This document shows, one piece after another, positions 8,664-56,844 of a stretch of DNA of 64,000 nucleotides. The translations under genes and the position numbers were made by a program. The notes beneath the pieces are model-generated. The model was not told where the DNA came from. It made no database searches and saw only the letters and a program-made list of their open reading frames with translations. The stretch covers positions 12,830 to 76,829 of the forward strand of contig CAKOWI010000004.1 of assembly GCA_934122275.1 (NCBI GenBank). The letters are read 5' to 3'. How positions within the stretch are numbered: position 1 is the first letter of the stretch; each line of letters starts with the position of its first letter. This DNA is from an uncultured Bacilli bacterium (GTDB lineage: Bacteria; Bacillota_I; Bacilli_A; RF39; UBA660).

Positions 8664-8740
<77 letters not shown>

Positions 8741-9251: not shown

Positions 9252-9367
9252 ATTTTCCCTCCCCCTTTAGTTAATAATATACATTAATATATATTATTAC
9301 GTAGTACAGAAATTATAGCACACTCGACATCATTTGTCAATTTATTCTTTTTACACTTACTTTATAT

Positions 9368-10180
9368 TTATTTGATAATCTTTTGACAGTATGGACAATA
9401 ATAAGTACCTCTTTGCCCCACTTTTTCTTTTACTATTACGTTTCCACATTTATAGCACTTTTCATTTTTTCTCATATGTACCATAAGATGTTTTTCAAAC
9501 TCCCCTCTTACTCCATCTATATTTGGATATGTCCCTTTGTATTTAAGAGCTTTTTCAAATACCAACTTAGTGTTTTTTATAATATCATTTATTTCATCTA
9601 TATTAAGTTTATCTGCATATGATTTTGGATTAATGCCACTTTCAAATAAAATTTCATCAGCATAAATATTTCCTATACCCGTTATATACTTTTGATCCAA
9701 TAATACTTTTTTTATTTCTATATGTTTATTTTTAAACTTATTTATTAAATAATTAGCATTTAAATTACTATCGTCATATTCAAGCCCTAATTTCTTTTCT
9801 TTAAAAAAGTCATTAAACTTACCTTTTTCTATAACTTCCATTTTACCAAACAATCTAGGATCATTGTAATGAAGTGAAAAATCATCAAAATAAAATATTA
9901 CATAATCATGTTTATCTTTCTTTGCATTTAATGGTAATAAATAAAATCTACCTTCCATTCTAAAGTGAATTATTAAATAATTATTTTCTAACTCAAATAT
10001 GAGCCACTTACCTCTTCTTTTTACATCTACAATAAGTTCACCTTCAGAGTTTTTAATAAATAGTTCTTTCTTATTATATACAATCTTATCTAAAAAAACT
10101 TCTACTTTGTTAATTCTTTTATTTATAATAACTTTTTGTAAGTCTCTTTTAGTTGTTTCAACTTCTACTAATTCCGGCAT
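9368..10180 (-). CDS. mutM: Formamidopyrimidine-DNA glycosylase
   Basis: N-terminal MPELVEVE, H2TH region, C-terminal zinc finger CYKCG...CPYCQ. 270 aa. Confidence 0.9.
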   Translation of the reverse strand: MPELVEVETTKRDLQKVIINKRINKVEVFLDKIVYNKKELFIKNSEGELIVDVKRRGKWLIFELENNYLIIHFRMEGRFYLLPLNAKKDKHDYVIFYFDDFSLHYNDPRLFGKMEVIEKGKFNDFFKEKKLGLEYDDSNLNANYLINKFKNKHIEIKKVLLDQKYITGIGNIYADEILFESGINPKSYADKLNIDEINDIIKNTKLVFEKALKYKGTYPNIDGVRGEFEKHLMVHMRKNEKCYKCGNVIVKEKVGQRGTYYCPYCQKIIK

Positions 10181-10188
10181 AATAACCT

Positions 10189-12768
10189 CTATTTAGTCTC
10201 AAGCCAGTTATTGCCAGTTTCTACATCAACTTTTAGTGGAACATCTAGCTTATAAGCATTATCCATGCATCTAGTAACTATTTCTGATACCTTTTTTATT
10301 TCATCTTTTAAAACATTAAATATAAGCTCATCATGTACCTGAAGAAGCATCTTACTTTTTAAGTTATTATTATCAAATTCATTTTGAATATCAATCATTG
10401 CTTTCTTTAAAATATCAGCACTAGATCCTTGAATAGGCGTATTAAGAGCCATTCTTTCACCCTGATTTCTAATCATGTAATTAGTATTTTTTAGTTCATC
10501 TATCTTTCTTTTTCTGTTCATTATAGTAGTTACATAGCCCTTTTCATAAGCTTCTTTTATTACATTATCCATATAAACTTTAGTACCACTATAAGTTTCA
10601 AAATATTTATTAATAAATTCCTTTGCTTCTTTTACACTAATTCCTAAATCTTCAGCTAATCCAAAACTACTTATACCATATAATATTCCAAAATTAACAG
10701 CTTTAGCTTGTCTTCTCATTAATTTTGTAACATCTTTTTCTTCAACTCCAAAAATATCCATTGCAGTTTTAGTATGAATATCCATATCATTATTAAATGC
10801 TTCTATCCAGTTGGGTACCTTTGAAAAGTGAGCGAATATACGCAGTTCAATTTGTGAATAATCACTTGATAGTAAGACAGAATTTTCTTCTGGAATAAAT
10901 GCTTTTCTAATTAAACTTCCATAAGAAGTTCTAATAGGAATATTTTGTAGATTAGGTTCTATCGATGATAATCTTCCTGTTCTAGTTAATGTTTGAGTAT
11001 ATATTGTATGAATTTTTCCATCTGGTAAAATACTATTTTTTAGACCTATTATATATGTACTTTGAAGTTTTGATAACATTCTATGTTCTAATATAAGAGG
11101 AACTATAGGACTTCTGCTTCTATATTTTTCAAGTGTTGCTTTATCTGTAGAATAACTATTCTTTGTTTTCTTAACATCAGCTATTTTTAATTTTTCAAAT
11201 AAAATTTCACCCAATTGTTTAGGAGATGAGATATTAAATTCTTCGCCGCAAATATCGTATATTTGTTTTGATATATCATTTATTTTTTTATTTAGTTCTT
11301 CTTTCATTTCATCTAATACGTTTTTATCTACTCTTATACCCTCATATTCCATTTTTCCTAAAACATATGATAATTTCATTTCTATTTCATTAAACAAATA
11401 TGTACAATCTTCTTTTTCCATTTCTTCTTGCAATGTATTTTTAGTTTCATATATAAACTTTGCTTTATTTACAACCATATTATTAATTATATTGTAATTT
11501 AATTCCTTAGCTTTACTAATTACTTCATAAAATGGTATATCATAACCAAATTCATTTGCTAAATATGCTATATCATCTTTAATATTATAATTTAGTAAAT
11601 ATGCCGCTATTGAAGTGTCAAAACTAACATTAGTAAGATTAGTATTTAAGTATTTTAAAGTAACATAATGCTTCTTTAAATCATAAGTGTATTTTTCTTT
11701 GTCGTTGATTAATTTAATAACATCACATATCATATCTTTGTTTACATAATAGGCATTTTTTCCGTCATAAATTCCCATTGATAATGGTTTTGATATATGA
11801 TAATTTGATTTGTCTAATTCTATATAAAATGCTAAAGGATAAGATAATTTTTCTAAATCATCTAGATTGGTTAATTCTTTAGCTTCTATGCTTTTGTTTT
11901 CCTTATTTACTTTCATGTTTTTCAAAAATGAGAAAAACTCTAATTCTTCATATTTAGATTTTAATTTATCTAAATTAGTATCTTTTATTTTCGTATCTTC
12001 TAAGTCAAAATCTAAAGGAACTTCTTTATATATAGTAGCTAAATCCTTACTATCAAATGCACTTTGTCTATTATTAATAAGTTTAGTCTTAACTGCGCCA
12101 CTTATCTTGTCTAAATTATCATATATTCCCTCTAATGAGCCATAATCCACTAATAGTTTAAGTGCTGTTTTTTTGCCTATTCCCTTTACTCCTGGTATGT
12201 TATCAGATGGATCACCTTGTAAGGCTTTAATGTCAACCATTTTTTCAGGTGTAAGATTATATGTTTCATAAAATGTATTTTTATTCATCATTATATAATC
12301 TTTAGTCTTTAATAATTTAACAATTACCTTATCTGTAATAAGCTGTAACAAATCTTTATCACTACTTATTATAAGACCATCATATAAATCATTTTCATCA
12401 ACTTTTTTAGACATTGTACCAATTATATCATCAGCCTCATAATTATCTATTTCAAACCATTTAATACCTAAAAGTTCAAGTATTTCTTTAGCTACTGGAA
12501 ACTGTAATTTTAACTCATTAGGCATCTGTATTCTACCAGCTTTATATTCTTTATACTTATCATGTCTAAATGTCTTTCCTTTATCAAATGCAACAAGCAT
12601 ATATTCTGGTTTTTCTTCTGATTTTATCTTATTAATCATGTTAATAAAACCATATAATGCATTAGTTGGAAACCCTTTACTATTTTTCATAAAGTTTCCT
12701 GAGTAAGCAGTTGCATAATAACTTCTAAAAAGCAGGTTATTACCATCTACTAATATTACTTTTTTCAT
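10189..12768 (-). CDS. polA: DNA polymerase I
   Basis: About 859 aa starting MKKVILVDGNNLLFRSYYA (5'-3' exonuclease domain). Polymerase motifs DYSQIELRI and QVHDELIF are present. Confidence 0.95.
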   Translation of the reverse strand: MKKVILVDGNNLLFRSYYATAYSGNFMKNSKGFPTNALYGFINMINKIKSEEKPEYMLVAFDKGKTFRHDKYKEYKAGRIQMPNELKLQFPVAKEILELLGIKWFEIDNYEADDIIGTMSKKVDENDLYDGLIISSDKDLLQLITDKVIVKLLKTKDYIMMNKNTFYETYNLTPEKMVDIKALQGDPSDNIPGVKGIGKKTALKLLVDYGSLEGIYDNLDKISGAVKTKLINNRQSAFDSKDLATIYKEVPLDFDLEDTKIKDTNLDKLKSKYEELEFFSFLKNMKVNKENKSIEAKELTNLDDLEKLSYPLAFYIELDKSNYHISKPLSMGIYDGKNAYYVNKDMICDVIKLINDKEKYTYDLKKHYVTLKYLNTNLTNVSFDTSIAAYLLNYNIKDDIAYLANEFGYDIPFYEVISKAKELNYNIINNMVVNKAKFIYETKNTLQEEMEKEDCTYLFNEIEMKLSYVLGKMEYEGIRVDKNVLDEMKEELNKKINDISKQIYDICGEEFNISSPKQLGEILFEKLKIADVKKTKNSYSTDKATLEKYRSRSPIVPLILEHRMLSKLQSTYIIGLKNSILPDGKIHTIYTQTLTRTGRLSSIEPNLQNIPIRTSYGSLIRKAFIPEENSVLLSSDYSQIELRIFAHFSKVPNWIEAFNNDMDIHTKTAMDIFGVEEKDVTKLMRRQAKAVNFGILYGISSFGLAEDLGISVKEAKEFINKYFETYSGTKVYMDNVIKEAYEKGYVTTIMNRKRKIDELKNTNYMIRNQGERMALNTPIQGSSADILKKAMIDIQNEFDNNNLKSKMLLQVHDELIFNVLKDEIKKVSEIVTRCMDNAYKLDVPLKVDVETGNNWLETK

Positions 12769-27108: not shown

Positions 27109-27633
27109 TTATTTGCTAGCATCTATTCCAGTTTCAATATAGTCTTCGCCCTTAAATGGTTCAGTTCTTAATAAATCTCTATAGTTTTGTTGTCTTAATA
27201 CTTCATATACCATAATAGCAGCACAATTTGATAAATTTAATGCCCTAACTTTATCGGTCATAGGAATTCTTAAGCAATGTTCTAAGTCATCTTTTAAAAT
27301 ATCAAGTGGTATTCCACTACTTTCTTTTCCAAAAACCAAATATATATTTTCATCTTTATTACTATAATCAAATGAAGTATGGGGCTTTTTGCCATATCTA
27401 GTTAAATAATAAAAAGTTCCTTTATTTTTACTTTTAAAGTCATCCCAGTTTTCGTATACAGTATAATTACAATTATCTATATAGTTAGCTCCGCTTCTTT
27501 TTATATAACTTTCATCTAGTGAAAAACCAAGTGGTTTAATAAGATGAAGATGTGTGTCAGTTGCAGCACAAGTTCTCATTATATTTCCAGTGTTTCCTGG
27601 AATTTCCGGTTCAAATAAAACTACATTAATCAT
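27109..27633 (-). CDS. trmL: tRNA (cytidine/uridine-2'-O)-methyltransferase TrmL (SpoU family)
   Basis: MINVVLFEPEIPGNTGNIMRTCAAT...FGKESSGIP...LNLSNCAAIMVYEVLRQ. Confidence 0.85.
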   Translation of the reverse strand: MINVVLFEPEIPGNTGNIMRTCAATDTHLHLIKPLGFSLDESYIKRSGANYIDNCNYTVYENWDDFKSKNKGTFYYLTRYGKKPHTSFDYSNKDENIYLVFGKESSGIPLDILKDDLEHCLRIPMTDKVRALNLSNCAAIMVYEVLRQQNYRDLLRTEPFKGEDYIETGIDASK

Positions 27634-28084
27634 TTATGATTCCTCTTTCTGTAAGTGAATTTACTATATCAGTTTCACTTTTTAATGTATCACAATTAAT
27701 TACATCAGTAATTGTTCCATCCTTATATATAACTAACTCAGGTGCATTTTGATATACTGGATCTACCTGATTAGTACCATTTATATTTATATATATAACA
27801 TCATTTTCTAGATTATGTTTCTTTACTACATTAATAAAGTTTTTCTCAAATGTAAGTGAAGTATTTTCACTACTATTAGAAACATAAATAATTATTTTAG
27901 GTTGTTCTAGTACATAACTATTTATTTCCTCATATTTTATTTCAGTTAAATAACTATCAATCTTAGAAACCGATAAATCATTTTGTTTCTTATTACTGTA
28001 TAATTTTAATGCTACTAATAATGCAAACAATGTAAACAAACACATTACTATAAATAATACTATCTTTTTATTTTTTTCTTTCAT
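27626..28084 (-). CDS. Membrane-anchored hypothetical protein (thioredoxin-like size, no CxxC)
   Basis: 152 aa with an N-terminal TM. Overlaps the trmL start by 8 nt. Confidence 0.45.
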   Translation of the reverse strand: MKEKNKKIVLFIVMCLFTLFALLVALKLYSNKKQNDLSVSKIDSYLTEIKYEEINSYVLEQPKIIIYVSNSSENTSLTFEKNFINVVKKHNLENDVIYININGTNQVDPVYQNAPELVIYKDGTITDVINCDTLKSETDIVNSLTERGIIND

Positions 28085-28150: not shown

Positions 28151-29848
28151 TTAATAACTCTTACCTTTTTGCAATGAATCAATATAATTTTTCATATCCT
28201 TATTTCTACTATAATTTGAGCTTCTATAATTGTTAACTAAATCTATTATAAAATTCTTTTTATCATTGCTAAAATTATTCAAATTATAATTACTCGTTTT
28301 TCCTAAGCTATCATCAATAATTTTCATTGAATATGTATCATACCTATTTGATAGTTCTTCACAAGAGATATTATTGCTGTTTGAAATAACATTAAAAAGT
28401 TCCTGTTGAATTTCATCTTGAAATAAGATAAAATCTTTTGCATATTCAAAATTATCATATTCATTGTATTCCAAATGATTGTAACAATCTAGTTCCCAAG
28501 CTCTCATAAAATAAAATACTGTTTCAATGTCATTTATTTTTCCATTTGCTATAGCAGATGAAAGACCTTTATAAAATTGTTTTGTTAAATATATCACAGA
28601 ATCTTGTCTTGCTTCCATACGGATATGTAATTTATCATCATCCGTTAATTTCAATCCTACTTCTTTTTCATAATTCTCCCAAAAGTCGTCACATCTATCA
28701 CTAAACTGTCCCAATTCAACAGAATATGCAAATTTTAAAAAATCCATTTTATCACTTTTAGACACTATGCCTAATTTTTCGAACAATTCTTCCAGATTAT
28801 TAGTAAATGAAATATCTTTAAAGCTATCTATATCAAAGTCATCTTCAAAAATTCTACTTATAACATATGATTTCATATAAGATATTGGTTTTCTATATGT
28901 ACTAGGGCTAACATTCAAATAATTTGCCATTTCTAGCTCTGCACTACTTTCTAATATCCAACTACACCACAAAGGGTTAACGCTTACATTATCGTATCTT
29001 CTAAAAGGTCCAGCTTCAAGTCCGTTTTTATCATTTAAATCATTTGATTTATACTCTATCAAATGTTCTATTTCATGGACAATAACATTTTTTACCATTT
29101 CTTCTTTAGTTATGTTGTTTCCTCTAGTTAATTGGACCTTATAATACATATCCGTCATACTAGGATTATACTGTAAAGTAAATTCATCATTAACTAAAGC
29201 ATTTGATGCCATTCCAGTATTATTAAAAATAGTAAGTTTTTCAAGAATTCTGCAAATTTCTTTTACATCATATTTAGATGAATCTACTACTTCTTTAATG
29301 ATATTACATATTAGCATAATGTCAGAAGGATTAGTGTCTGAATAAAATGTGTTAACAGCATTAACTTTTCCTTCCTTATATTTTTTATTATTCTCAATAA
29401 CACTATTATATAATTTATTAGCATCAAGTTTACCATCAGTTCCTATTAAGTTATTACTTAAATTTTTATTGTCATTAGTAACACTATTATAAACCTTTAA
29501 AGCCTCTTCGATGTGATAATACTTAGAGTAATCGAAATCATCACTGTAATCATTGAGATTTTTTATAAATTCATCCTCATTAATACTATCCAAATTTATT
29601 TTAGTAGTTGATTTATTTTTTTTAACATATTCTTGTTCATCAATCACTTTAACGTCCATATTATAATTACCGTCAATGTATTTATCTTCATTGGTAACTT
29701 CTGTAATAGATGTAGAATTTTGACTATAATCACTAGGATGTTCAAAATCATAAAAGACTTTAACACCACCTACAATAGTTAATGTTCCAACCAGACCAAT
29801 TGAAATTAACGCCTTTTTAGGTCCACTTAATTTATACTTTTTTTTCAT
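28151..29848 (-). CDS. Membrane-anchored protein with HExxH zinc-metalloprotease-like motif
   Basis: About 565 aa. N-terminal signal anchor ALISIGLVGTLTIVGG. Contains VIVHEIEHLIEY, with ESSAELE about 45 residues downstream. Confidence 0.5.
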   Translation of the reverse strand: MKKKYKLSGPKKALISIGLVGTLTIVGGVKVFYDFEHPSDYSQNSTSITEVTNEDKYIDGNYNMDVKVIDEQEYVKKNKSTTKINLDSINEDEFIKNLNDYSDDFDYSKYYHIEEALKVYNSVTNDNKNLSNNLIGTDGKLDANKLYNSVIENNKKYKEGKVNAVNTFYSDTNPSDIMLICNIIKEVVDSSKYDVKEICRILEKLTIFNNTGMASNALVNDEFTLQYNPSMTDMYYKVQLTRGNNITKEEMVKNVIVHEIEHLIEYKSNDLNDKNGLEAGPFRRYDNVSVNPLWCSWILESSAELEMANYLNVSPSTYRKPISYMKSYVISRIFEDDFDIDSFKDISFTNNLEELFEKLGIVSKSDKMDFLKFAYSVELGQFSDRCDDFWENYEKEVGLKLTDDDKLHIRMEARQDSVIYLTKQFYKGLSSAIANGKINDIETVFYFMRAWELDCYNHLEYNEYDNFEYAKDFILFQDEIQQELFNVISNSNNISCEELSNRYDTYSMKIIDDSLGKTSNYNLNNFSNDKKNFIIDLVNNYRSSNYSRNKDMKNYIDSLQKGKSY

Positions 29849-29922: not shown

Positions 29923-30231
29923 TTATATGATATTCGTTCTTTTTTTTATTTGACAATTTGGCAAACTCTCAGATTGTTTACTTAAATTAGAAATTAAACT
30001 GTCATAATTATTGTTACTATTAATGATTAAATTTCTAATATTATTAATTTCCTTTTTACATCTATTAAGGTCTGAAGCAGCACGTTTCAAACTCTGTTTT
30101 CTAGAAAAGTCACTAGGAATGCTTATTTGATAAAAATAATTTATTGATTTTTGAATAGCATTAACTACATCTTCTAGTACTAAAACACAATTAGAACGCA
30201 TAGCATCATAATTCAATTCAACTTTCGACAT
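29923..30231 (-). CDS. Small helical protein, T7SS-associated by context
   Basis: 102 aa. Separated from the upstream WXG gene by 1 nt. Confidence 0.45.
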   Translation of the reverse strand: MSKVELNYDAMRSNCVLVLEDVVNAIQKSINYFYQISIPSDFSRKQSLKRAASDLNRCKKEINNIRNLIINSNNNYDSLISNLSKQSESLPNCQIKKRTNII

Positions 30232-30232
30232 A

Positions 30233-30520
30233 CTACTTTCCCCACTTATTAATTATATTATTAACATTAACACCAGCATTTTTTATGGCACTACCATAAC
30301 ATTTCAAATAATTTCCAAAGGTCAAATAATTAGCTTTATCCAACAAAGCCCTTTGAGAATAAATTGAAGCACTTTTACCAGACCAGGCATTTTTTTCAAT
30401 ATTTGTTATTTTTTCAAATAAATCATTTATTAAATTAGTATATTCGTGCGATAAATTAATTATTTCTTCTCCACATTCTACTAATTTATTTCCATCAGCT
30501 GTCATCTTCGCCATAATCAT
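30233..30520 (-). CDS. WXG100-like protein
   Basis: 95 aa with a central W-S-G (NAWSGKSA) between two predicted helices. Forms an ATGA overlap with the upstream gene. Confidence 0.6.
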   Translation of the reverse strand: MIMAKMTADGNKLVECGEEIINLSHEYTNLINDLFEKITNIEKNAWSGKSASIYSQRALLDKANYLTFGNYLKCYGSAIKNAGVNVNNIINKWGK

Positions 30521-30810
30521 TGCCTCTCTACTTCCGTAAGATCATTAGTAATTTTCTCCAATTCCACATTAATATAATATAAAACATCAGTTAGCGTATT
30601 GATATCCTGTGATATTGAATTTTTTAATTTTGAAAGCTCATTATATTTATAAGGATAATTATTAACATTATAACTTTGTTTCAAGTTTGACATTGCCACA
30701 GATATATTATCCATCACATTATAGTTTTTAAGAGTATTAATCATATAAATCACATTTTCTCTCATGTTTCTATAATATGATCGTTTTCTACTTAAACTAG
30801 AAATATCCAT
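30517..30810 (-). CDS. Small helical protein, T7SS-associated by context
   Basis: 97 aa, no WXG motif. Translationally coupled to the downstream WXG gene. Confidence 0.45.
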   Translation of the reverse strand: MDISSLSRKRSYYRNMRENVIYMINTLKNYNVMDNISVAMSNLKQSYNVNNYPYKYNELSKLKNSISQDINTLTDVLYYINVELEKITNDLTEVERQ

Positions 30811-30821
30811 AATTTAAACCA

Positions 30822-31298
30822 TTAATGTTGTTCTGTATAAGTCTCAACACCACTTGAAAGACCAGATGCTTCTTGTGATACATCTTGTGATAATGTAGTA
30901 TCACTCTTTTTATATTCTTCTCCGTACTCATACATTCTATCACTATATGCCAAAAGTGAAGAAACATAAGCTTTTGCCACATCAGAAACCGCTTGAACAT
31001 ATTCTTTAGTTGCTGTTACAACTTCACCTTTTAAAGCATTATCTGTATTGGCTTCGGTATTTAACTTAGCTACTTCCTCTTGTACTCCATTAACATATGT
31101 TCTTATTGCTTCACGAATTGTTTCGATTGATGCATAATTTAAACCTACAAATGTTTCACCATTTTTTGCTACTGTAAAAGCTGTTCCAGCATAACCTTGA
31201 ACATTTGAAATTGTTCCTCTAAATTTATCACTAAAATTTTGTACTTTATCAATTGCTCTTCCAGCTTGGTTTTTAATATATTGTCCTATAGCTCCCAT
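30822..31298 (-). CDS. 158-aa Ala/Gly/Val/Thr-rich protein, candidate T7SS substrate
   Basis: Strong RBS aggagg. Composition is visibly less AT-skewed than its neighbours. No signal peptide. Confidence 0.5.
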   Translation of the reverse strand: MGAIGQYIKNQAGRAIDKVQNFSDKFRGTISNVQGYAGTAFTVAKNGETFVGLNYASIETIREAIRTYVNGVQEEVAKLNTEANTDNALKGEVVTATKEYVQAVSDVAKAYVSSLLAYSDRMYEYGEEYKKSDTTLSQDVSQEASGLSSGVETYTEQH

Positions 31299-31307
31299 AC
31301 TTTCCTC

Positions 31308-31610
31308 CTACTCTTCATCAACTAAATTGGCATCCATATCTAAAATATTTGATTGAATACCATTTAATTCATCCTCAAAAGTTTTTTGCAATTCCTTCAA
31401 AGTCTCAACCATTTGCTCTTTAGCTTTGTTTAAATTTGAAATAAATTGCTCAGGTGCATTTCCATGCCATCCATTTCTTACTGCATTTTCAACCTCTTCG
31501 GTTGCTCTAATTTTTGATGCAACATCGTTTAGAACAATAGAATTTACATCGTTAATGTAAGTTTGCATTCCTGTAATGTTTACACCATGATCTGCATTTT
31601 GAAAATCCAT
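31308..31610 (-). CDS. WXG100-family (EsxA-like) protein
   Basis: 100 aa from MDFQNADHG (RBS aggaagg). Central W-H-G (RNGWHGNAPEQF) in a helix-turn-helix layout. Confidence 0.65.
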   Translation of the reverse strand: MDFQNADHGVNITGMQTYINDVNSIVLNDVASKIRATEEVENAVRNGWHGNAPEQFISNLNKAKEQMVETLKELQKTFEDELNGIQSNILDMDANLVDEE

Positions 31611-31614
31611 AAAA

Positions 31615-31962
31615 TTACCTTCCTTCCTTGTAGTTTGTTGGAGCATTCATTTTCGACGCATCCTTTCTGATTTTCACGGATAAGTCATCCATATTTAACG
31701 CACACTTCTTTTTTAATAGTGAAAAATCATTGCCATAACTCATAAGATTTTGAATAATTGTATTATAATTTGATGAAAAAAGCTCATATTTAGCTCTCAA
31801 TTTATCAGCACTAGTACAATTATAATATGATCTAGTCTCTAATACCAAATCATTAATTTTATTAAGTATAATCTTAATTCTATTAGAGCAATCAGATATA
31901 TCTAATATCAATTTATTTATTTGTTGTTCATTTATTGCAACTATACCATTTGAGTTATTCAT
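31615..31962 (-). CDS. Small helical protein, T7SS-associated by context
   Basis: 115 aa from MNNSNG (RBS ggaggtg). No WXG motif. Confidence 0.45.
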   Translation of the reverse strand: MNNSNGIVAINEQQINKLILDISDCSNRIKIILNKINDLVLETRSYYNCTSADKLRAKYELFSSNYNTIIQNLMSYGNDFSLLKKKCALNMDDLSVKIRKDASKMNAPTNYKEGR

Positions 31963-32025
31963 ATACACCTCCACCATTACTACGATAAGTCTGCAACCTA
32001 TCCTAGTTTAATTAAATAACATTTA

Positions 32026-32058
32026 AAAATAATTGTCAATAGTTTTGACAATTATTTT
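32026..32058. terminator. 13-bp-stem palindrome between the yukD-like gene and the small-protein operon
   Basis: aaaataattgtca / tgacaattatttt with a 7-nt loop. Confidence 0.4.
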
Positions 32059-32163
32059 ACACTAAACATAAAATTTTGGTGAAATTTATCGGTTTATTCT
32101 CTAATAACATAATTTTTTGTCAAGTTACTTCACCATTTTACATAATAGTATACACAAAAACAA

Positions 32164-32418
32164 TTAAATTAATACCAATTTTGTACCATTTCTTATATCA
32201 GTTTCATATATAGTGTTATTTATATTATATCTCATTCCACTTTCATGATTATATAAATTTTGATTAACGTTACATCGGTACAAATCCTTAGTTTGTTCTA
32301 TTAGAAATTTATTAATGAGTTCAATAATGTTACCGATTTTTCTATTTACCGGCATTAATAAATCATAATTTTCATCTAACTCAGGAACGATTAATGTAAC
32401 AAAAACCTTATTTTCCAT
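32164..32418 (-). CDS. esaB: YukD/EsaB-like ubiquitin-fold T7SS protein
   Basis: 84 aa. ...YDLLMPVNRKIGNIIELI...DIRNGTKLVLI. Lies immediately downstream of essC. Confidence 0.7.
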   Translation of the reverse strand: MENKVFVTLIVPELDENYDLLMPVNRKIGNIIELINKFLIEQTKDLYRCNVNQNLYNHESGMRYNINNTIYETDIRNGTKLVLI

Positions 32419-32420
32419 TA

Positions 32421-35400
32421 CTAGTCACCCTCCTCATCAATAACGTACTTTATTATTGTATCGGTAGTACCTTGAGTAACAAAGCCAATATATGAGAACT
32501 GATCATTTAACTCTTGCATACTCAATTTATCAAAATTTAAAAGTATTTGTTCATTTGCTCCTTCACCTAACCATATACCATATTCTTGACTAAATACATC
32601 CTGATACCAATTCTCTATTTGAAGATTTTTAAATGAATCATAATTATCAAAAATTAATAGCTTTGACTTTTTAAATTTTGTTATATTGTCCATAAGTGAA
32701 TTAAAGTATTGTATATACTGCTCTGAAATTTGCTCTCTAAACTTGCTAAATCCAATTAATATGAATACACGCATCGTAGAATCTTGCTCTTTATTTATTT
32801 CTTTTATAACACTAACAAGTACTGTATCAAAATTATTATTATAAACAGTAACATCGTTTAAATAATCATTCCATAAGTTTAACGCATCTATAACTGTTAT
32901 ATTAGTATTTTCTAAATTTTTCATTTCCATACAAATTGATTTTATAAAATTAATTTTATCACTTATATTTTTTGACAATATTGGAGTGACTGAATTAATA
33001 CCAAAATCATATAAAAATACATCTTTCTCATTCTTAGAAAATCCTACTGGTACATTGTTTATATTGTTAACCTTATCTTTTATCATATCGAACGTAACAG
33101 TATCTGGTAATACAGCTATTTTTCTTGCTGTTCGTTTATATTTTTGATTTAAACTAATACCAGTTTCTTTTAGAGTTTTATTCATTTCATCTCTTTGTGC
33201 AACATATGCTGTTTGAAATTCATAAAAATGCTCATTATAAAGTGCAATTCCTCTACCAAACATTTTTTTAGGATATAATCCTTTTGGAGAGTTCAACACA
33301 CTTCTATAAACGTTTTCATCTGGTTGTTGTAATGAAATTTTATTTAAAAATAATTGTTGCATTCTAGCTCCGAGAGAATTATTTACAGAAGTTGTAATTA
33401 TAAATACAATACCATACTTTGAACCATCTCTTATTAACTGATTAAGTGCTTCAGCTAATCTTGCATTAGTTTCAACAAAAATTTCGTATGAGTTAATTAC
33501 AACAACTATTAAAGGCAGTGTACTGCCACTTTCTTTTATATAATTTTTATAATTTCCAGCATAATCAGTAAACAAATTCTTTCTTTTTGTTGCTTCTTCA
33601 TCAATCATTAATAAAGTATTTAGTATTAAATCGTTTTCATCAACGGTAGCAACAACTCCCACATGTGGGTATTTACTAAATATTCTAAGAGTTTCTGCTC
33701 CAAAATCAAAAATATAAAAATTAACTTCATCTGGACTATGGTTAATGCATGTTGAATATATTAAAGTTGTCAACAAATTTTCTTTACCAGAGCCAGCCAT
33801 TCCATAGACAAGTAAATGCCCTATATTAGACAAATCTATTGTTAATAAACCTTGATTTTGACTAGCAGGATCATCATATTCGCCGATAGCAGGATTAATC
33901 AAAAATGGTTTAGAATTATAACTATACTTCTCAATCATTCCATCTAAGTATATCACTGCAGGTATACTACTAAGCCATAGTTTATTAATACTTATCTTTT
34001 GCTGCTTAGAAACGTTTACGATATATTTAACTATATTGGTTAACTGATCACCTAAATTTACATCATTTTTCTTTATAGCATCTTGATTATCATCAATAAC
34101 TTTAATAACTTCCCCTATCTCATTTATGTATTCAATAGAACTATCAACTTTTCTGACAATTCTATCAGATGGAATATATTTAGCACCCGAATAACCTGAT
34201 TGACCTATGTCAAAGTACTCATCATAACCTACTTGTAAATAAAATCTACCTGTTTGTTTTATACTAGCGGCTTCTGGTCTTTTTAGCATTTCCATAGAGT
34301 CACCTCTATCTTGAACTTTTAGACATATTTTAAACTTTGAATTAGCCCAAATTTGATCATTTACCACACCAGATGGTTTTTGTGTTGCAAGAATTAAATG
34401 TACTCCTAAAGAACGTCCAATACGAGAAATTGAAATAAGTTCATTCATGAATTCTGGCTGTTGTGCCTTAAGTTCAGCAAATTCATCAGATATTATAAAT
34501 AAGTGTGCTATTGGTTCCTTTATTTTACCTTCTCTATACAATTTTTGATACTTATATATGTCAATGGTTCCTTCACCTAATCTATCACGCTCCTGATTGA
34601 ATTTTTTCTGCCTTCTTTTAAGTTCACTGTTGATAGATACTAATGACCTATTCATTTCGGCGGTATCTAGATTTGTAATCGTTCCTGCTAAATGAGGCAA
34701 ACAAATTCCTTTTTCTCTGTTTTCGAATGCACCAGCAAGTCCACCACCTTTATAGTCAATTAAAACAAATTGAACCTCATTCGGATGGAAATTTATAGCC
34801 ATTGATAAAACAAATGTAATTATAAATTCAGATTTACCAGAACCGGTAGAGCCCGCTATAAGGCCATGTGGTCCATGAGCTTTTTCATGTAAATCAAGTA
34901 TAAATAAATCACGATCTGCATGAACACCAATTGGAGTTTTTAAATTGTTAACAGGGTTGTTTTGTTCCCATCTATTAAGAATGTTCAATTGTTCAATCTT
35001 AGATACTCCATACATTTCAAGAAATGTTAAACTTTCTGGTAATACACTTTCCGACGACTTTATTGGTATAGGTATATTCGAAAGTTTCGAAGAGATTAAA
35101 TCCATATTAATATTTTGAATGTTAGGTAAATTAAACTGAGTAGTTATGCTTTGATCGTCTATCGGCTCAATTACATAACTATTATTTTCAAGCACATAAG
35201 TAAATGTTTGACATTGAGGTGGCAAATCAACCAAATTATCCTCAATAAACATTATTGAAAACCCTGTGTTGGTTTCACTTTTTAAAACTTCATTAATTAT
35301 CGGAACATCTTTTATCTTTTTATAGCAATCAGTAATAATTAAATAATATGGGGAAAAATTTTTATATGCACTATTATTGTCTCCACTATTTTGTGCATTT

Positions 35401-37001
35401 TTCTTAATATTTTCTTTTCTTTCTTTGAACTTTTTTTCAAGTAATTCAGAAATAATTTTAATATTCGCTATATTACTTGCATAATATCTATTACTTTTAT
35501 CTTCACTCCATACATGAGGTAAATTTTTAGCATATTCATACATTTCTTTTTGTTCGAGAAAAAATACTAACTTAAGATCTTGTGCTCCTTGAAGCGTTAA
35601 TAATTGCAAAATTATATTATCAACATAGTTTTTTTTAACAGTAGTGTTACAAATAATCGCAGAAAATCTATTTTTTGTCAATGATAAAGTAATTGGTACA
35701 TCAATTAAATTTTTAGATTTTTTTACTAATTCAAAAACTCTTTCTTCTAAATCATCTTCTTCTAAAGAAAATTTCTTCTCTTGTGCAGAAATTTTTATTT
35801 TAGCTTTTCTTTCACCATTTCCAACACTAATGTCTAAAAAGTCACTATCAAATATTTGTCTTTCCCACAGTCTTTTATTATTATTTAAAATAAAATTAGT
35901 ACATTCAGTCTGAGACGGATAATTAGTCTTTAATATGCTTGTCTGTTTATCTAAAATTCTATTTATCTCGTTTCTTTTTTCCTCCAAATATTTGCCGTAT
36001 TTTTCTTGCCTCAAATTCTCCTTCTTTTTTTTCTGTTTATTATTATATGCATTCGTAATTCTAGGCATTATCAAGCTTCCTATAACCAATGCTACACACA
36101 TTATTATCTGAGGTAGTAAACTAACAAACGACCTATTTCCGGATTGTAATCCAATTATAACGCTAAATCCCATCATAAATGATGATGCGGCCATGGTAAT
36201 GCTAGAACCAATAGTTAAAAAAATAGGAGTTTTTTCAACTTTGTCCTCTTCTGGAGGAGAATCTATTTTTATTTCTTCTTCTGTAACGTATTCTTTTATT
36301 CTAGGAATATGATAAAAATAAGAACCTTCATCATATAATTCAATATCATTATCATCAATGTTAATTTTTTCATAATTAGTATAATCAGTTGAAGATAAAT
36401 CGTTATAATATTGTAATCCATTTGTAATAATAGCATTCATTGGATTATTAAATTTTATAAAATCACCCATGTATATTATTTTTAAACCGTATAAAAATAT
36501 AACATCACCAGTTTTTAAAACCGCTTGCATAACATTTAAACCATTTACATATACACCTGGTCCAATTGCTTTTAAAATAACTGTTCCATTATTATTTTGA
36601 ATTACTATGTGTTCAGAGTTAATAAAATCACTGCGGTAACAAATATTGCAGTTTCCACTACCTATTGTGATGCTTGAAACATTAAACATACTTACACTAA
36701 TTAAATTACTTTCTACTTGGGGTAAACAATACAAAATTCTAGTGTTTCTATCAATTGATAATATTTCTAGCTCTTGATATGAATACTCTTTTAATACAGT
36801 ATCCAAAACTAAACTTCCGTTTTGTATAACATTGACTAGTCCGTTACTTTTTAATACCCACTTTCCATCCCTAGCTTCTATGTTAATATTGCATTCTTTT
36901 TTAGAACTAGTAGTCCTATATGGAATTAAAAAAGATCCTTGTATCTCGTGTGGCAAATTAAACTTAGTAATTTTATCATTATCTAAAATAAATATTTTCA
37001 T
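32421..37001 (-). CDS. essC: Type VII secretion FtsK/SpoIIIE-family ATPase EssC
   Basis: About 1526 aa. N-terminal FHA-like region, two TM helices (about aa 265-320), three ATPase modules. The first P-loop is GSTGSGKSE. Confidence 0.9.
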   Translation of the reverse strand: MKIFILDNDKITKFNLPHEIQGSFLIPYRTTSSKKECNINIEARDGKWVLKSNGLVNVIQNGSLVLDTVLKEYSYQELEILSIDRNTRILYCLPQVESNLISVSMFNVSSITIGSGNCNICYRSDFINSEHIVIQNNNGTVILKAIGPGVYVNGLNVMQAVLKTGDVIFLYGLKIIYMGDFIKFNNPMNAIITNGLQYYNDLSSTDYTNYEKINIDDNDIELYDEGSYFYHIPRIKEYVTEEEIKIDSPPEEDKVEKTPIFLTIGSSITMAASSFMMGFSVIIGLQSGNRSFVSLLPQIIMCVALVIGSLIMPRITNAYNNKQKKKKENLRQEKYGKYLEEKRNEINRILDKQTSILKTNYPSQTECTNFILNNNKRLWERQIFDSDFLDISVGNGERKAKIKISAQEKKFSLEEDDLEERVFELVKKSKNLIDVPITLSLTKNRFSAIICNTTVKKNYVDNIILQLLTLQGAQDLKLVFFLEQKEMYEYAKNLPHVWSEDKSNRYYASNIANIKIISELLEKKFKERKENIKKNAQNSGDNNSAYKNFSPYYLIITDCYKKIKDVPIINEVLKSETNTGFSIMFIEDNLVDLPPQCQTFTYVLENNSYVIEPIDDQSITTQFNLPNIQNINMDLISSKLSNIPIPIKSSESVLPESLTFLEMYGVSKIEQLNILNRWEQNNPVNNLKTPIGVHADRDLFILDLHEKAHGPHGLIAGSTGSGKSEFIITFVLSMAINFHPNEVQFVLIDYKGGGLAGAFENREKGICLPHLAGTITNLDTAEMNRSLVSINSELKRRQKKFNQERDRLGEGTIDIYKYQKLYREGKIKEPIAHLFIISDEFAELKAQQPEFMNELISISRIGRSLGVHLILATQKPSGVVNDQIWANSKFKICLKVQDRGDSMEMLKRPEAASIKQTGRFYLQVGYDEYFDIGQSGYSGAKYIPSDRIVRKVDSSIEYINEIGEVIKVIDDNQDAIKKNDVNLGDQLTNIVKYIVNVSKQQKISINKLWLSSIPAVIYLDGMIEKYSYNSKPFLINPAIGEYDDPASQNQGLLTIDLSNIGHLLVYGMAGSGKENLLTTLIYSTCINHSPDEVNFYIFDFGAETLRIFSKYPHVGVVATVDENDLILNTLLMIDEEATKRKNLFTDYAGNYKNYIKESGSTLPLIVVVINSYEIFVETNARLAEALNQLIRDGSKYGIVFIITTSVNNSLGARMQQLFLNKISLQQPDENVYRSVLNSPKGLYPKKMFGRGIALYNEHFYEFQTAYVAQRDEMNKTLKETGISLNQKYKRTARKIAVLPDTVTFDMIKDKVNNINNVPVGFSKNEKDVFLYDFGINSVTPILSKNISDKINFIKSICMEMKNLENTNITVIDALNLWNDYLNDVTVYNNNFDTVLVSVIKEINKEQDSTMRVFILIGFSKFREQISEQYIQYFNSLMDNITKFKKSKLLIFDNYDSFKNLQIENWYQDVFSQEYGIWLGEGANEQILLNFDKLSMQELNDQFSYIGFVTQGTTDTIIKYVIDEEGD

Positions 37002-37216
37002 AACGACCACCAACCTCTATTTTCCTATTCTATACATAATTATACTTGTAATTGGCTTACTTGTCAATTTATAACAAGATTGAATTTTACTGATTTACAA
37101 AAAATATTACTCTAGTTACTTTTAAAGAACGTTTTACATTTTTAAATCATTTTCATACTCTTTCATCATTCTTCTTAAATTGTTTAATTCAAATACAATT
37201 TTCTTTATAATAAAAA

Positions 37217-47587: not shown

Positions 47588-49003
47588 CTAATTTATTTGT
47601 CTTTTTTTATAAGAAATTATTGCTGATCCTACAAGTCCTATAATCGATAAAATGCTTGTTGATATATATAATACAATATTATCACCAGTTTTAGGATTTT
47701 TAACATTTGTGTTAGATGATTTTTCTGTTGCAATAATTCCATACTCACTTAAATGTGATGTTTCAAATACTATGTATCCATCTTCTACTGTTGCTGGTAT
47801 AGTTTCTTTTATTTCATTATCTAAAATATAAACTACCTCGTATTTTTTATATCCTTTTAATTCTTCTGGTAAAGCAATTTTTATTTTAATTTTAGTATTA
47901 TCAATTTTAACTATTTGACCATTTTCTAAAACATTAATATCAACTACATACTTAACATTTTTAGCTGTTAATTCTTTTTTTAATTCTACTTTTTTAATAT
48001 CTAATACATAATCTTTGCTAACTTCTTTTTCAAATGTAATACTTCCATTTATTACACCAGTGCTTTTGATTTCTTTTACTTGAGTAGGTTGATTTGAAGA
48101 TGTAGGTGTCATTGTTAAATCAGGGTACATTCTCCATGTTGTTTGAAATTCATCAAGATCTGTTTCTTCTTCCCAATCAGATACTCTATAATTATAATAT
48201 TTGCCATTTATTTTTAATTTAGTATTCCTTGTAAAAATATATCCTTCTTTAGCTTTAAAATATAAAATGTATTGGTATTCTTTTCCACTTTCAAAAGCAG
48301 TGATAAGATTTTCGTAACCTTGATTAAAGAATTCAGCAGATGTTATACCTGAACCATCTTTAGCTTGCCAGCATTCAAATTGATATATATATGGTGATCC
48401 ATCAGGTGTTTTTCCTGTAAATACAGGTTTATCATTTACATTAAAACTGATTGTTGCATTATTTAGCTCTATAACATCAATGCGTTTTAATTGAACTGGT
48501 TTTGTTGGTTTTATTGTTTTAACAGCAGTTACAAAAAGTATTGATCCAGAATTTAGTACACTAACACTACTTATTTTTGTGCTATTTACTCTTACTGTAC
48601 TATTATTTCCAAATTTATTTTCACCTTTTGCTTTAAGAGAAATACTATACATATAAGTTTTTCCTTCTTCAAAAGCAGTTATTTTTTTATCTTGTGCTAA
48701 AGCATTATTCTTGTTTTCATCAGAATACCAATATTTTACCGGGATAGCTTCACCTTTCTCATTAGTTTCCATTTCTTCCCAATATTCATACTCTATATCA
48801 TATAACCCGTCCCACGGATCACACTTATAAGCCTTTGCTTCTGGTTTATCTCCTGGATTATAATTAAATTTTACACCCTCAATATCTATATTTGCTGTGC
48901 TCAAATCTAAATCTTCTGCAAATGTCGTTATCGGTGCAATACATATAGCAAACAAAAAAATTAATATAGTCGTAATAAGTATTTTACTTTTTTGCATTTT
49001 CAT
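47588..49003 (-). CDS. Cell-surface protein with NPKTG-type sorting signal
   Basis: Signal peptide, internally duplicated beta-rich domains. C-terminus KNPKTGDN plus hydrophobic helix plus KKRQIN. Confidence 0.65.
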   Translation of the reverse strand: MKMQKSKILITTILIFLFAICIAPITTFAEDLDLSTANIDIEGVKFNYNPGDKPEAKAYKCDPWDGLYDIEYEYWEEMETNEKGEAIPVKYWYSDENKNNALAQDKKITAFEEGKTYMYSISLKAKGENKFGNNSTVRVNSTKISSVSVLNSGSILFVTAVKTIKPTKPVQLKRIDVIELNNATISFNVNDKPVFTGKTPDGSPYIYQFECWQAKDGSGITSAEFFNQGYENLITAFESGKEYQYILYFKAKEGYIFTRNTKLKINGKYYNYRVSDWEEETDLDEFQTTWRMYPDLTMTPTSSNQPTQVKEIKSTGVINGSITFEKEVSKDYVLDIKKVELKKELTAKNVKYVVDINVLENGQIVKIDNTKIKIKIALPEELKGYKKYEVVYILDNEIKETIPATVEDGYIVFETSHLSEYGIIATEKSSNTNVKNPKTGDNIVLYISTSILSIIGLVGSAIISYKKRQIN

Positions 49004-49009
49004 TTCCTC

Positions 49010-50281
49010 CTAATATTCTATTTTCTTCTTATTATTAATCACTACAGTTGTAATAATTCCTAACAATGATACTATAGATAATATAAAATACGTTGTAATA
49101 CTATCACCCGTTTTAGGGTTTTTCATATTTGTATTATTAGATGATTTTTCTTGCTTTTTAACTTCAAATTTAGTTATTGCTTCTCCACCATCATTAAATT
49201 CAGCTTTAATCGTATGCTCACCAGCTGATAGTGTATCAACATATTCTTTATTTAAAGTAATAACTGTGCTGCCAGATTCTGCCTTATAATTTTTAGCATC
49301 AATTAATGCTCCATCAATATATAGTTTACCATCAAATAAACTAAAGTCTGCGTCTATTCTAAATATAGCATTTTTTGATTCATTAATAGTATATATTTGA
49401 TTTGCTCCTTCAGTAAACTTATATTCTTTAGGGACAACTTCTTCGTTTACATATTGAAAATTAAATTCATAAGTACACTTAGTATAGTAATCAGTTCTTA
49501 TTTCATATATAATGCCACCATCTGAACCTGTAAAAGTTAACTTAGAACCTGTATATTTAGTATGAAGTCCTTTAAAAACTTCACTTTTTTTAGTTCCAAC
49601 ATTCACTGCAGTTAATATTGCTTTATTTTCTGACCTATTTCCAACTATCTTTATAACAGCTTCGCTTTCGTTGTCTGTTAATAATAAACCATTATAGTCT
49701 CTTTTATAATATAGTGTTTCATCTAAATTTACAAATGATTTTAATCCTTCTGTTAACTCATCAGTTTTAGAAAAATCAATTACACATTCTTGACCATTAG
49801 TCAAATCTATTACACCTTTTGATGTTAAATTTTCATAAATATTTTCAACCTTTGTATTAATAGCTGTTCTTATTCTTAAAAGTTTAACATCTAATGTTCC
49901 ACTAAATTTACTTGTTTCTAATTTAAATGTAGATTTAGTTTCACTTGATATTGTTGTTATAGGGTAATACCAATTATTGATATTTAATTTTATAGGTGTA
50001 TTAGCACCAGAAACACTTGTATCTTCAATTTCTTCAATTACAAATTTATACTCTGCTTCATTTAAATCAACTGTCATATCATTCGTAATATTAGTAACTA
50101 AATCATTACCTTTAAATAATTGCAATTTTCCTATTTTACTATATTCTACATAGCCATCATGAATTGTTCCACCTTTAAAATTCAATTTCACTTCATTTTT
50201 GGATTCAGCAAATACATTAGTAGTAAATGCAAACATTCCAATTATTACTGCTAATAGCAACCTCTTAACATATTTTAACAT
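49010..50281 (-). CDS. Cell-surface protein with NPKTG-type sorting signal
   Basis: Signal peptide. C-terminus KNPKTGDS plus hydrophobic helix plus NNKKKIEY. Confidence 0.65.
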   Translation of the reverse strand: MLKYVKRLLLAVIIGMFAFTTNVFAESKNEVKLNFKGGTIHDGYVEYSKIGKLQLFKGNDLVTNITNDMTVDLNEAEYKFVIEEIEDTSVSGANTPIKLNINNWYYPITTISSETKSTFKLETSKFSGTLDVKLLRIRTAINTKVENIYENLTSKGVIDLTNGQECVIDFSKTDELTEGLKSFVNLDETLYYKRDYNGLLLTDNESEAVIKIVGNRSENKAILTAVNVGTKKSEVFKGLHTKYTGSKLTFTGSDGGIIYEIRTDYYTKCTYEFNFQYVNEEVVPKEYKFTEGANQIYTINESKNAIFRIDADFSLFDGKLYIDGALIDAKNYKAESGSTVITLNKEYVDTLSAGEHTIKAEFNDGGEAITKFEVKKQEKSSNNTNMKNPKTGDSITTYFILSIVSLLGIITTVVINNKKKIEY

Positions 50282-55512: not shown

Positions 55513-56844
55513 TTAATATTCATCATAAGTTCTTATATTGTTTTTTAACTTTTCTATATTTTCCTTATTTGTATATATCTTAACTTTATAGTCATCATAA
55601 AGTATTATTTCTTTGTTATTAACGTTTTTTATGGAATTATTTATTATATTCATAATATCATTACTATCCTTTACATAACGATGTATTTGATATATGTTAG
55701 GTTCATGATTTTCAACTGAAACATAATAATACTTAGAAGTCTTAGATACTATTTTAATATCATTATTATCAGATTCAACAAACTCATAATCTCCATAAAT
55801 TTCTAATTTATCACTCATATTAATAATTTCTTCTGTTTCGCTAAAATATTTATCATTATTACTGTTTATTATTTTAAACTTAGATATTCCTATTAAAGAC
55901 ATACCTATACCAAATCCCATAACTAGTAGTGAGATAAAAAACATTAAAGCAAGTCTTAATTTCTTAGATTTATGACTGAACACAAAATCAAATAACATTT
56001 TTAAAATAACATAATTAATAACAATGGATGCTAAAATAGTTAATATCATTCCTACAAATAGAATACCACTCTTAATAAATAAGAAAGATAGAATAAATGA
56101 TACTGAAAGCATAACTAATGATACAAAGAAGAATCCTGCAATAAATGATAAAAATATCTTTAATCCTAAAACAAATACTTTAACAAGACCACCTATTATT
56201 CTATATTCTGAATTCTTTGGATCTCTTATTATTATCTTTTCATCGTCTTTTTTTTCTAATTCTATTTCATCTTCTGTTTTTTCTTCTTTAGATATATCAT
56301 AATAATTAAGATATCTTTCTTTAAATATATGTAAAACAACTATAAATCCTAATGCAAAAGCTATAATTAAATATATAGATTCTAATATACTATAAATTAT
56401 ATTATATACTTTGTTATAATTCATAAAGGATAATACACTAGATATTAAACTACTAGATATAGAACCTATAATAGCAAATAAAATACAAAGAATACCAATT
56501 ATAATTAGTTGCTCTACTATACATTTTATTTTTGATGAAAACTTCATCTTACTAAACATATTAACTGTCTTAGTAACATAACTTAAGAAACTATCAATAT
56601 ACTTATTAATATTATTTCTTTGTTGTTTAATGTTGTTTACTTCTTTAATATCCTGATTTAGTAAATCATCCATATTTAGGTTAAACATCTTGCATATTTG
56701 AACTACTTTATCCATTTCAGGATATGCTTGATTTGATTCCCACTTAGATACAGATTGTCTTGATACTCCTAACTTTTCTGCTAAATCTTCTTGGGTTAGA
56801 TTATTTTCTTTTCTTATCTTTTTTAAATTGTCTGATAAATTCAT
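55513..56844 (-). CDS. XRE-family HTH domain fused to a polytopic membrane domain
   Basis: N-terminus LKKIRKENNLTQEDLAEKLGVSRQSVSKWESNQAYP, followed by at least 6 TM helices and a C-terminal soluble domain. Confidence 0.75.
   Translation of the reverse strand: MNLSDNLKKIRKENNLTQEDLAEKLGVSRQSVSKWESNQAYPEMDKVVQICKMFNLNMDDLLNQDIKEVNNIKQQRNNINKYIDSFLSYVTKTVNMFSKMKFSSKIKCIVEQLIIIGILCILFAIIGSISSSLISSVLSFMNYNKVYNIIYSILESIYLIIAFALGFIVVLHIFKERYLNYYDISKEEKTEDEIELEKKDDEKIIIRDPKNSEYRIIGGLVKVFVLGLKIFLSFIAGFFFVSLVMLSVSFILSFLFIKSGILFVGMILTILASIVINYVILKMLFDFVFSHKSKKLRLALMFFISLLVMGFGIGMSLIGISKFKIINSNNDKYFSETEEIINMSDKLEIYGDYEFVESDNNDIKIVSKTSKYYYVSVENHEPNIYQIHRYVKDSNDIMNIINNSIKNVNNKEIILYDDYKVKIYTNKENIEKLKNNIRTYDEY

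Follow-up and report, generated by a model that had tools for sequence, protein, structure and literature searches.

Can a type VII secretion system (T7SS) be carried by a locus in which an EssC-type ATPase and a YukD-like protein are the only recognisable pieces of machinery? This question is raised by nine genes within a 64,000-nucleotide stretch of contig CAKOWI010000004.1 from an uncultured bacterium, the whole of which is hereafter referred to as the window. There, genes encoding EssC and a YukD-like protein of 84 amino acids (aa) are followed by a cassette of six genes encoding small proteins (s1 to s6), and by a gene encoding p568, a protein that is tethered to the membrane and bears an HExxH motif. 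We favor, with a probability of roughly 60%, the reading that EssC, the YukD-like protein, six small helical proteins and an HExxH surface protein compose a reduced T7SS module conserved in a clade of low-GC gut Bacilli. The proposal of a minimal or novel variant, made in an initial annotation of the locus, stands with regard to composition and host clade, both of which are new, while T7SSs lacking EssA, EssB and EsaA have already been described (Garrett, Higginson & Palmer 2024, PMC11217815).

Components of the locus

The window has a base composition of approximately 26% GC and carries most of its genes on the minus strand, as is the case for the locus itself, in which all nine genes are intact and follow one another in the order essC, YukD-like gene, s1 to s6, p568 (Table 1; gene sizes are those of the gene calls on the public contig, which is identical to the window). 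EssC and the YukD-like protein are encoded by the sole recognisable machinery genes of what is, on the available evidence, a type VII-type locus. Each element of the parts list initially drawn up for this locus, namely a 1526-aa EssC, an 84-aa ubiquitin-fold protein and six genes encoding proteins of 93-158 aa, is present. That inventory is correct as far as it goes, but it overlooked a seventh conserved linked gene, that of p568, such that the bounds given for the locus (29923-37013) are too narrow and the functional unit reaches position 28151.

EssC scores 952.8 bits against the NCBIfam model TIGR03928 (cutoff 778.4) and matches the FHA and FtsK_SpoIIIE families of Pfam. Consistent with the FHA-transmembrane-ATPase architecture originally attributed to it, the protein contains two FHA domains, two transmembrane (TM) helices (residues ~258-285 and 291-315) and FtsK-type ATPase domains. 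Both Walker motifs are intact in the first of these domains (D1), A reading GSTGSGKS at 717 and B lying at 834, and a further P-loop (GMAGSGKE, at 1067) is found in the second (D2). Alignment to Bacillus subtilis YukB (9qks) is possible at residues 299-981 only (2.2e-118); the FHA region does not align, and the GR and SxxH residues that bind phosphothreonine are missing from the second FHA domain. Because a T7SSf-like EssC outscores the EssC of this locus on TIGR03928 (1317.8 versus 952.8 bits), that model cannot assign a subtype, and its use as a test of T7SSb membership was dropped. Approximately 38 nt upstream of the essC start codon lies a putative sigma-70-type promoter, assigned by consensus match alone.

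The start codon of the gene encoding the YukD-like protein is located 2 nt past the essC stop. As a single sequence, this protein has no match in Pfam. Among 26 of its homologues from related loci, however, 15 match the Pfam YukD family (PF08817; best 6.7e-9), and an AlphaFold2 (AF2) model built with database homologues as input (pLDDT 94.6) predicts a beta-grasp fold. Searched with Foldseek, this model retrieves ubiquitin-like proteins with probability 1.0, including the ubiquitin-like (Ubl) domains of EccD (7np7_D2, 4kv2_A and 7b9f), which are parts of mycobacterial ESX systems. A search of the family profile against PDB sequences returned nothing meaningful, and the fold assignment rests on the model and the Foldseek matches instead. 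The C-terminus reads -VLI and lacks Gly-Gly. Together, the homologue matches and the predicted fold agree with the YukD/EsaB-like label first given to this protein.

The genes of the cassette are close-packed, and none of their six products has a hydrophobic N-terminus or signal peptide. By family profile, s1, s2 and s5 belong to the WXG100 superfamily, the single-sequence Pfam scores of all three lying under the gathering threshold. Specifically, the s2 profile matches Staphylococcus aureus EsxA (2vs0) at 5.6e-6, while that of s5 matches EsxA (3zbh) at 1.6e-4 and retrieves EsxA and EsxB of S. aureus and B. anthracis over a range of 1.6e-4 to 1e-3. The two W-x-G motifs that had been reported among the six small proteins are invariant in the corresponding family alignments (W60-x-G62 of s2 and W46-x-G48 of s5). 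The third member, s1, has no TM helix, produces weak WXG100 and ESAT6 matches in Pfam and NCBIfam scans, and matches T. curvata Esx (4lws; 2.6e-4) as well as SAG1039 by profile.

The remaining three proteins, s3, s4 and s6, have no relative in the databases scanned (Pfam and NCBIfam and, for s3, the PDB), s4 showing weak coiled-coil-type Pfam matches only, and their ties to other cassette proteins come from hhalign only. The s3 protein shares 50-66% identity with its relatives, compared to 35-45% for the products of neighbouring genes, and its C-terminal 110 aa are similar to s1. Its family comprises 83 clusters of unnamed stand-alone proteins of ~128-176 aa (nearly all 157-176), including one 93-aa fragment. 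The s6 family is marked by an invariant 'IP' motif. Because hhalign pairs s1 with s3 (91.6%), s2 with s5 (66.6%) and, weakly, s4 with s6 (42%), the cassette resembles three pairs of distantly related helical proteins.

Next to s6 on its 3' side is the gene for p568, whose N-terminus is a signal anchor, replaced in many homologues by a lipobox (L-x-G-C). As either element would direct the protein into the Sec pathway, Sec export is proposed and p568 probably reaches the cell surface by this route. The family alignment shows little or no variation at H261, E262, H265, E303 and E307, the last two of which lie approximately 40 residues past the HExxH motif. In the AF2 model (pLDDT 78, pTM 0.80), a three-stranded sheet is followed by the HExxH helix and then by a Glu-bearing helix, a modelled layout corresponding to the gluzincin core, and p568 is a candidate zincin by motif, spacing and predicted secondary structure. 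Pfam yielded no significant match, only sub-threshold SprT-like matches in 4 of 15 family members (best 0.03) and YgjP-like matches in a few; similarly, a profile search against PDB sequences found no relative, and a Foldseek search of the model against the PDB found nothing below an E-value of 0.5 (best 0.53). The family is nevertheless sizeable, with 433 cluster representatives recovered at E<=0.001 in an exhaustive profile search; the best 150 of these 433 are mostly full-length matches of ~500-620 aa.

Table 1. Features of the locus and of other parts of the window (positions are those of the window)
Feature	Coordinates	Strand	Description
Putative sigma-70-type promoter upstream of essC	37039-37067	-	TTGACA-17-TATAAT; consensus hexamers 12/12
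essC	32421-37001	-	1526 aa from ATG; open reading frame extends to 37013 via upstream TTG
YukD-like gene	32164-32418	-	84 aa
Promoter-like site before cassette	32096-32123	-	TTGACA-16-GAGAAT; 10/12 consensus matches
Inverted repeat between YukD-like gene and s1	32026-32058	-	perfect 14 bp, AT-rich, 5-nt loop
s1	31615-31962	-	115 aa; WXG100 superfamily by profile, without W-x-G
s2	31308-31610	-	100 aa; WXG100 by profile, EsxA-like
s3	30822-31298	-	158 aa; helical; best conserved of s1 to s6
s4	30517-30810	-	97 aa; helical, no known family; same position in 12 loci
s5	30233-30514	-	93 aa; WXG100-like
s6	29923-30231	-	102 aa; helical, no known family; same position in 12 loci
p568 gene	28151-29848	-	565 aa; extracytoplasmic, membrane-tethered
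DUF6568 gene	27626-28084		part of conserved SpoU/ZnuA flank
Genes for 471-aa and 423-aa proteins	47588-50281	-	adjoining; each product with N-terminal signal and C-terminal TM segment
Gene for 443-aa protein	55513-56844	-	N-terminal XRE/RstR-type helix-turn-helix and ~six TM helices

Recurrence of the module and the search for further machinery

Comparison of the window with 34 EssC-relative loci from species-representative genomes, each with up to 10 kb of flank, demonstrates that this set of genes recurs. Loci whose EssC is 43-65% identical to that of the window originate from gut metagenome-assembled genomes (MAGs) labelled Bacilli, Tenericutes or Mycoplasma sp., one module carrier, Ca. Coprovivens excrementavium, being placed in the GTDB order RF39 (PMC8035907), and the host clade is probably one of uncultured, low-GC, RF39-like gut Bacilli. 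BLAST and hidden Markov model (HMM) mapping located EssC, the YukD-like protein, s1 to s6 and p568 in the window and in 12 of the loci recovered with EssC (L005-L007, L009-L013, L016, L018, L022 and L025). A search based on p568 recovers the module in three more (L044, L048 and L050), and a further locus, L039, is a short contig bearing the cassette only. The survey of relatives suggested at the outset has thus returned the same reduced gene set in ~16 other loci.

The pattern of conservation in these loci is informative in several respects. Firstly, a YukD-like homologue follows EssC in nearly all of the 34 loci. Secondly, the order of s1 to s6 is fixed, while the cassette and p568 may share the strand of essC or occupy the opposite one, with p568 either ahead of the six genes or behind them. 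Thirdly, the flanks of the module vary, consisting of ftsY/ylxM in the window and of secG, RNase R and smpB, of proS, or of a HerA-like gene elsewhere. Gene order is kept across deep divergence, EssC identity falling to ~45% in p568-linked loci. At the other end of the scale, comparison with a 98.7%-identical strain reveals 19 synonymous and 5 non-synonymous changes in the YukD-like gene and s1 to s6 pooled, and by this count these seven small genes are under purifying selection.

The search for further components of the machinery covered 30 of the ~64 open reading frames (ORFs) of the window, namely ten locus proteins and 20 others (10 scanned with Pfam and 10 with NCBIfam) chosen among ORFs with TM segments or without annotation. 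Models of LXG, EssB/YukC, EsaA and EssA matched none of the ten locus proteins in Pfam or NCBIfam scans, and none of the 20 further ORFs; nor was EssB-, EsaA- or EssA-like topology found among window ORFs. In ~16 related loci, genes next to the module were likewise inspected for products of EssB-, EsaA- or EssA-like size and topology, and no candidate emerged. The claims that EsaA, EssA and EssB are absent in or near the locus, and that no LXG toxin is present, consequently hold for the locus and the scanned ORFs and, in the case of the three membrane proteins, for the module's neighbours in relatives. The concern that some of the small ORFs might be fragments of essA, essB or esaA is not borne out either, as no locus protein matches those models.

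Several individual candidates were considered and rejected. A P-type ATPase accounts for the one large polytopic ORF of the window. The DUF6568 protein encoded beyond p568 was excluded as EssA, given that its match at 1e-13 is to the DUF6568 family and that its gene is part of a conserved flank. With regard to p568 as EsaA, the model lacks a Foldseek match at E<0.5 to any PDB entry, the solved EsaA included. In related loci, neighbours of suggestive size or topology proved to be housekeeping proteins: a 405-aa, one-TM CapA-like protein, a 703-aa RNase R, a 71-aa SecG, ProS, ThrS and SerA. Besides the P-type ATPase, the scanned window ORFs encode EzrA, a D-alanyl-D-alanine carboxypeptidase, two LPXTG-like surface proteins, a polysaccharide deacetylase-like protein, a helix-turn-helix (HTH) membrane protein and small DUF3923-like proteins; the penicillin-binding protein of the window was identified via precomputed Pfam matches on the identical contig.

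Variations upon the module are found in several relatives. In L014 (14964-15610) and L015 (8035-8740), only s3-like and s2-like genes accompany EssC and the YukD-like protein and p568 is lacking, a further reduced cassette. In L005 (5886-7889) and L044 (805-2823), a gene for a ~670-aa HerA/DUF87-type ATPase is located immediately upstream of essC, with a gene for a 179-aa one-TM protein lying between the two in L005; neither gene is found in the window. The same clade also carries a second, paralogous type of T7SS locus, composed of an EssC of ~39% identity, a YukD-like protein, WXG100 proteins, DUF4176 and large unannotated proteins, and no EssB- or EsaA-like neighbour was found there. This second type is present in L017, L019, L020, L026 and L033, where proteins of 340-840 aa without a Pfam match may be divergent toxins, and both types occur in Ca. 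Coprovivens and in MAG BRZ_KK bin32. The closest species-level relative (L006, CAYVPV010000013.1, 5240-14575) possesses a tandem pair of essC genes whose products are 41% and 65% identical to that of the window, and thus holds two T7SS types side by side; upstream of the pair are WXG100 genes, a DUF4176-like gene and a gene for a 1191-aa protein without a Pfam match.

The 201-bp spacer between the YukD-like gene and s1 contains a promoter-like site and, downstream of it, a hairpin. In relatives, the cassette must have its own promoter, as it is often located on the strand opposite to essC. The palindrome noted in the initial annotation is present (predicted RNA fold of -13.3 kcal/mol, z -3.2), yet the role of terminator then assigned to it is one option among several: lying downstream of the promoter-like site and not conserved among 11 relatives, the hairpin may equally serve as an attenuator or as an operator. 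An Rfam scan found no RNA family in the locus or in the leader ahead of the cassette. The cassette leaders of L007, L009, L010, L022 and L025 share a 'TAAGGTA...GGTAG'-like stretch right after a -10-like box, which may represent a conserved transcription start or an element of the 5' untranslated region.

Outside the locus, two adjoining window genes encode 471-aa and 423-aa proteins that, from their predicted features, resemble sortase-dependent surface proteins; one of the two has weak LPXTG-anchor and EF0750-family matches, and neither is otherwise annotated. The architecture of a third window protein, of 443 aa, is that of a would-be membrane-bound transcription regulator.

Proposed function and alternative explanations

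Based on these data, a working scheme can be proposed. Multimers of EssC would form an export channel driven by ATP. The YukD-like protein may bind EssC and organise its assembly, by analogy with B. subtilis YukD, which binds YukB and promotes its assembly (PMC12637312). The s1 to s6 proteins, whether they are substrates or partners secreted along with substrates, would leave the cell in the form of helical-hairpin dimers or bundles. Outside the membrane, p568 might act either on these exported proteins or on the wall that they cross, MycP and EssH being loose analogues. Such a system would apparently work without EssB, EsaA and EssA. As the locus contains no toxin-immunity pair, its output is more likely to consist of small WXG-type proteins than of LXG-type antibacterial toxins.

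A bolder version of this scheme, which we put forward tentatively and consider to have somewhat less than an even chance of being correct, is that of a hitherto unclassified and self-sufficient T7SS subtype of RF39-like gut Bacilli, in which EssC and the YukD-like protein would be the only machinery at the cytoplasmic membrane and a Sec-exported zincin lipoprotein, representing a new family, would be the dedicated extracytoplasmic partner that processes or releases a fixed set of six co-secreted WXG100-like proteins. If true, few working T7SSs would be simpler, and no earlier one would have a metalloprotease among its components. A module that works alone would represent a natural minimal T7SS composed of EssC and a ubiquitin-like protein, and would inform both the requirements of export channels in monoderms and the roles of FHA domains and YukD where EssB is lacking. 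More generally, the locus extends T7SSs to a common, uncultured gut lineage with small genomes, the p568 family adds a new, sizeable and unannotated HExxH family (433 representatives, ~550 aa) that is repeatedly linked to T7SSs, and the cassette provides a defined set of candidate substrates for the co-secretion of several WXG-type proteins.

Several points weigh against the reading of these genes as a reduced T7SS module. Evidence for the absence of EssB, EsaA and EssA covers the scanned window ORFs and module-adjacent genes, and unlinked essB, esaA or essA genes have a small but real probability. The pairing of EssC and a YukD-like protein without EssB leaves EssC with two FHA domains whose partner in T7SSb, EssB, is missing from the module. 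The structure modelled for p568 matches that of no known peptidase, and two p568 relatives lie on short contigs without a nearby T7SS gene, such that the family is not strictly tied to T7SSs. Linkage counts are partly biased by ascertainment, as most loci were found via EssC. Finally, secretion, complex formation and proteolysis by the module proteins are predictions from sequence. Three alternative explanations were considered.

The first is that p568 is an independent surface protease, acting for example on host or dietary proteins, and merely syntenic with the cassette. While the two relatives found apart from T7SS genes, export that relies on a signal anchor or lipobox of its own and not on the T7SS, and the lack of a match to known T7SS components would all suit such a protein, p568 adjoins s1 to s6 in ~17 loci, even where the cassette is inverted or relocated and over the full range of EssC divergence in p568-linked loci. 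In addition, a p568 relative in L046/L047 (40% identity), a lipoprotein from an organism of 39% GC, is encoded beside a T7SS of the kinase/phosphatase type, an unrelated subtype in a distant organism. The EssC of that T7SS is 30% identical to that of the window and its YukD is recognised by Pfam; it further comprises two WXG100 genes, a phospholipase-like protein, a PP2C phosphatase and a Ser/Thr kinase, and the neighbourhood is, by its gene content, an independent association of the p568 family with a T7SS. In these loci (1-11614; JGI metagenomes), the phospholipase-like gene sits between the WXG100 genes and a macro-domain gene is also present. In light of this repeated linkage, we consider an independent p568 unlikely.

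A second possibility is that the locus belongs to an ordinary T7SSb, with EssB, EsaA and EssA encoded elsewhere on the chromosome, in which case the system would be split rather than reduced. Scans confined to the window and to locus flanks leave room for such an arrangement, and EssC both passes the NCBIfam EssC model and keeps the two FHA domains that, in T7SSb, bind EssB (PMC11217815, PMC12637312). That model does not discriminate between subtypes, however, and the FHA region of this EssC cannot be aligned to YukB. Moreover, in known T7SSb the essB, esaA and essA genes sit with essC (PMC11217815), whereas no EssB-, EsaA- or EssA-like neighbours accompany the module in ~16 loci of varied context, or the second T7SS type of the same clade. 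A split system is therefore rather improbable, somewhat more so than an independent p568.

Lastly, a decaying T7SSb remnant, having lost its membrane components in the course of genome reduction and secretion with them, is very improbable: hosts that are seemingly reduced-genome Bacilli and a 98.7%-identical strain with essC-splitting indels, albeit on a contig of ~5x coverage, are outweighed by nine genes intact in the window and in ~16 species-level relatives, intact Walker motifs, a consensus promoter, an excess of synonymous over non-synonymous changes and an order conserved over deep divergence. In the strain concerned (L002, 230-4820), essC is divided into ORFs of 1172 aa and 364 aa, which may reflect assembly error rather than a pseudogene.

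Comparison with known type VII systems

In comparing the reduced module with T7SSb, several likenesses become apparent. EssC has the FHA-TM-FtsK-type ATPase architecture and passes TIGR03928, a criterion unspecific to T7SSb; the locus encodes a discrete YukD/EsaB-like ubiquitin-fold protein; the s2 and s5 WXG100 proteins resemble S. aureus EsxA; and the second FHA domain of EssC is without phosphothreonine-binding residues, as reported for T7SSb (PMC11217815). Despite these similarities, EssB/YukC, EsaA/YueB and EssA/YueC were not found in the locus, in the scanned window ORFs or beside the module in relatives, and the locus is without an LXG toxin or immunity gene. Furthermore, it has six small helical genes where T7SSb has one core esxA, it adds a tethered HExxH protein, and the FHA region of its EssC is not alignable to that of YukB.

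With respect to p568, precedent exists for extracytoplasmic hydrolases that are tied to a T7SS, genetically or physically, and exported independently of it, namely MycP of T7SSa and EssH of S. aureus T7SSb, which are required for complex stability, substrate processing or wall passage (PMC11217815, PMC13059805). While p568 shares with these proteins both topology and genetic linkage to a T7SS, MycP is a subtilisin-type serine protease and EssH is a CHAP amidase, and neither has detectable homology to p568 with its HExxH...E arrangement.

Close parallels are found among the eight T7SS subtypes c to j, which retain an ATPase, a WXG100 protein and usually a ubiquitin-like protein, and which are without EssA, EssB and EsaA (Garrett, Higginson & Palmer 2024, PMC11217815). 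As these subtypes have already been described, the lack of EssA, EssB and EsaA in the present locus is by itself unsurprising. None of the extra components of T7SSc-j was recognised in the module proteins by Pfam or NCBIfam: there was no kinase TsxD, PPM phosphatase TsxF, TsxJ, TsxV, TsgL, TsxI or TsxG, and no match to a kinase, PP2C, vWA, DUF6382-FHA, TadZ-like ATPase, DUF5050 propeller, Ig-repeat TsxI or EspG-like protein. These accessory-domain scans covered the module proteins of the window, related loci having been assigned the same genes on the strength of homology and position. In contrast to TsgC of T7SSg, which is without FHA domains, EssC of this locus has them. The published subtypes, as presented in the text of PMC11217815, which does not mention a metalloprotease or lipoprotein component, include neither a lipoprotein of the zincin-like kind nor a fixed cassette of six helical genes. 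That survey drew on RefSeq, while the hosts of the module are uncultured lineages represented by MAGs, and in the literature searched for RF39 together with type VII secretion only one unrelated review mentions both. Despite these differences, the module shares with T7SSc-j, and especially with the 'simple' T7SSg and T7SSf, a TsxA/TsxB/TsxC core (WXG100 protein, ubiquitin-like protein and ATPase) to which lineage-specific extras are added and from which EssA, EssB and EsaA are absent, and with T7SSe and T7SSg it shares the presence of two non-identical WXG proteins.

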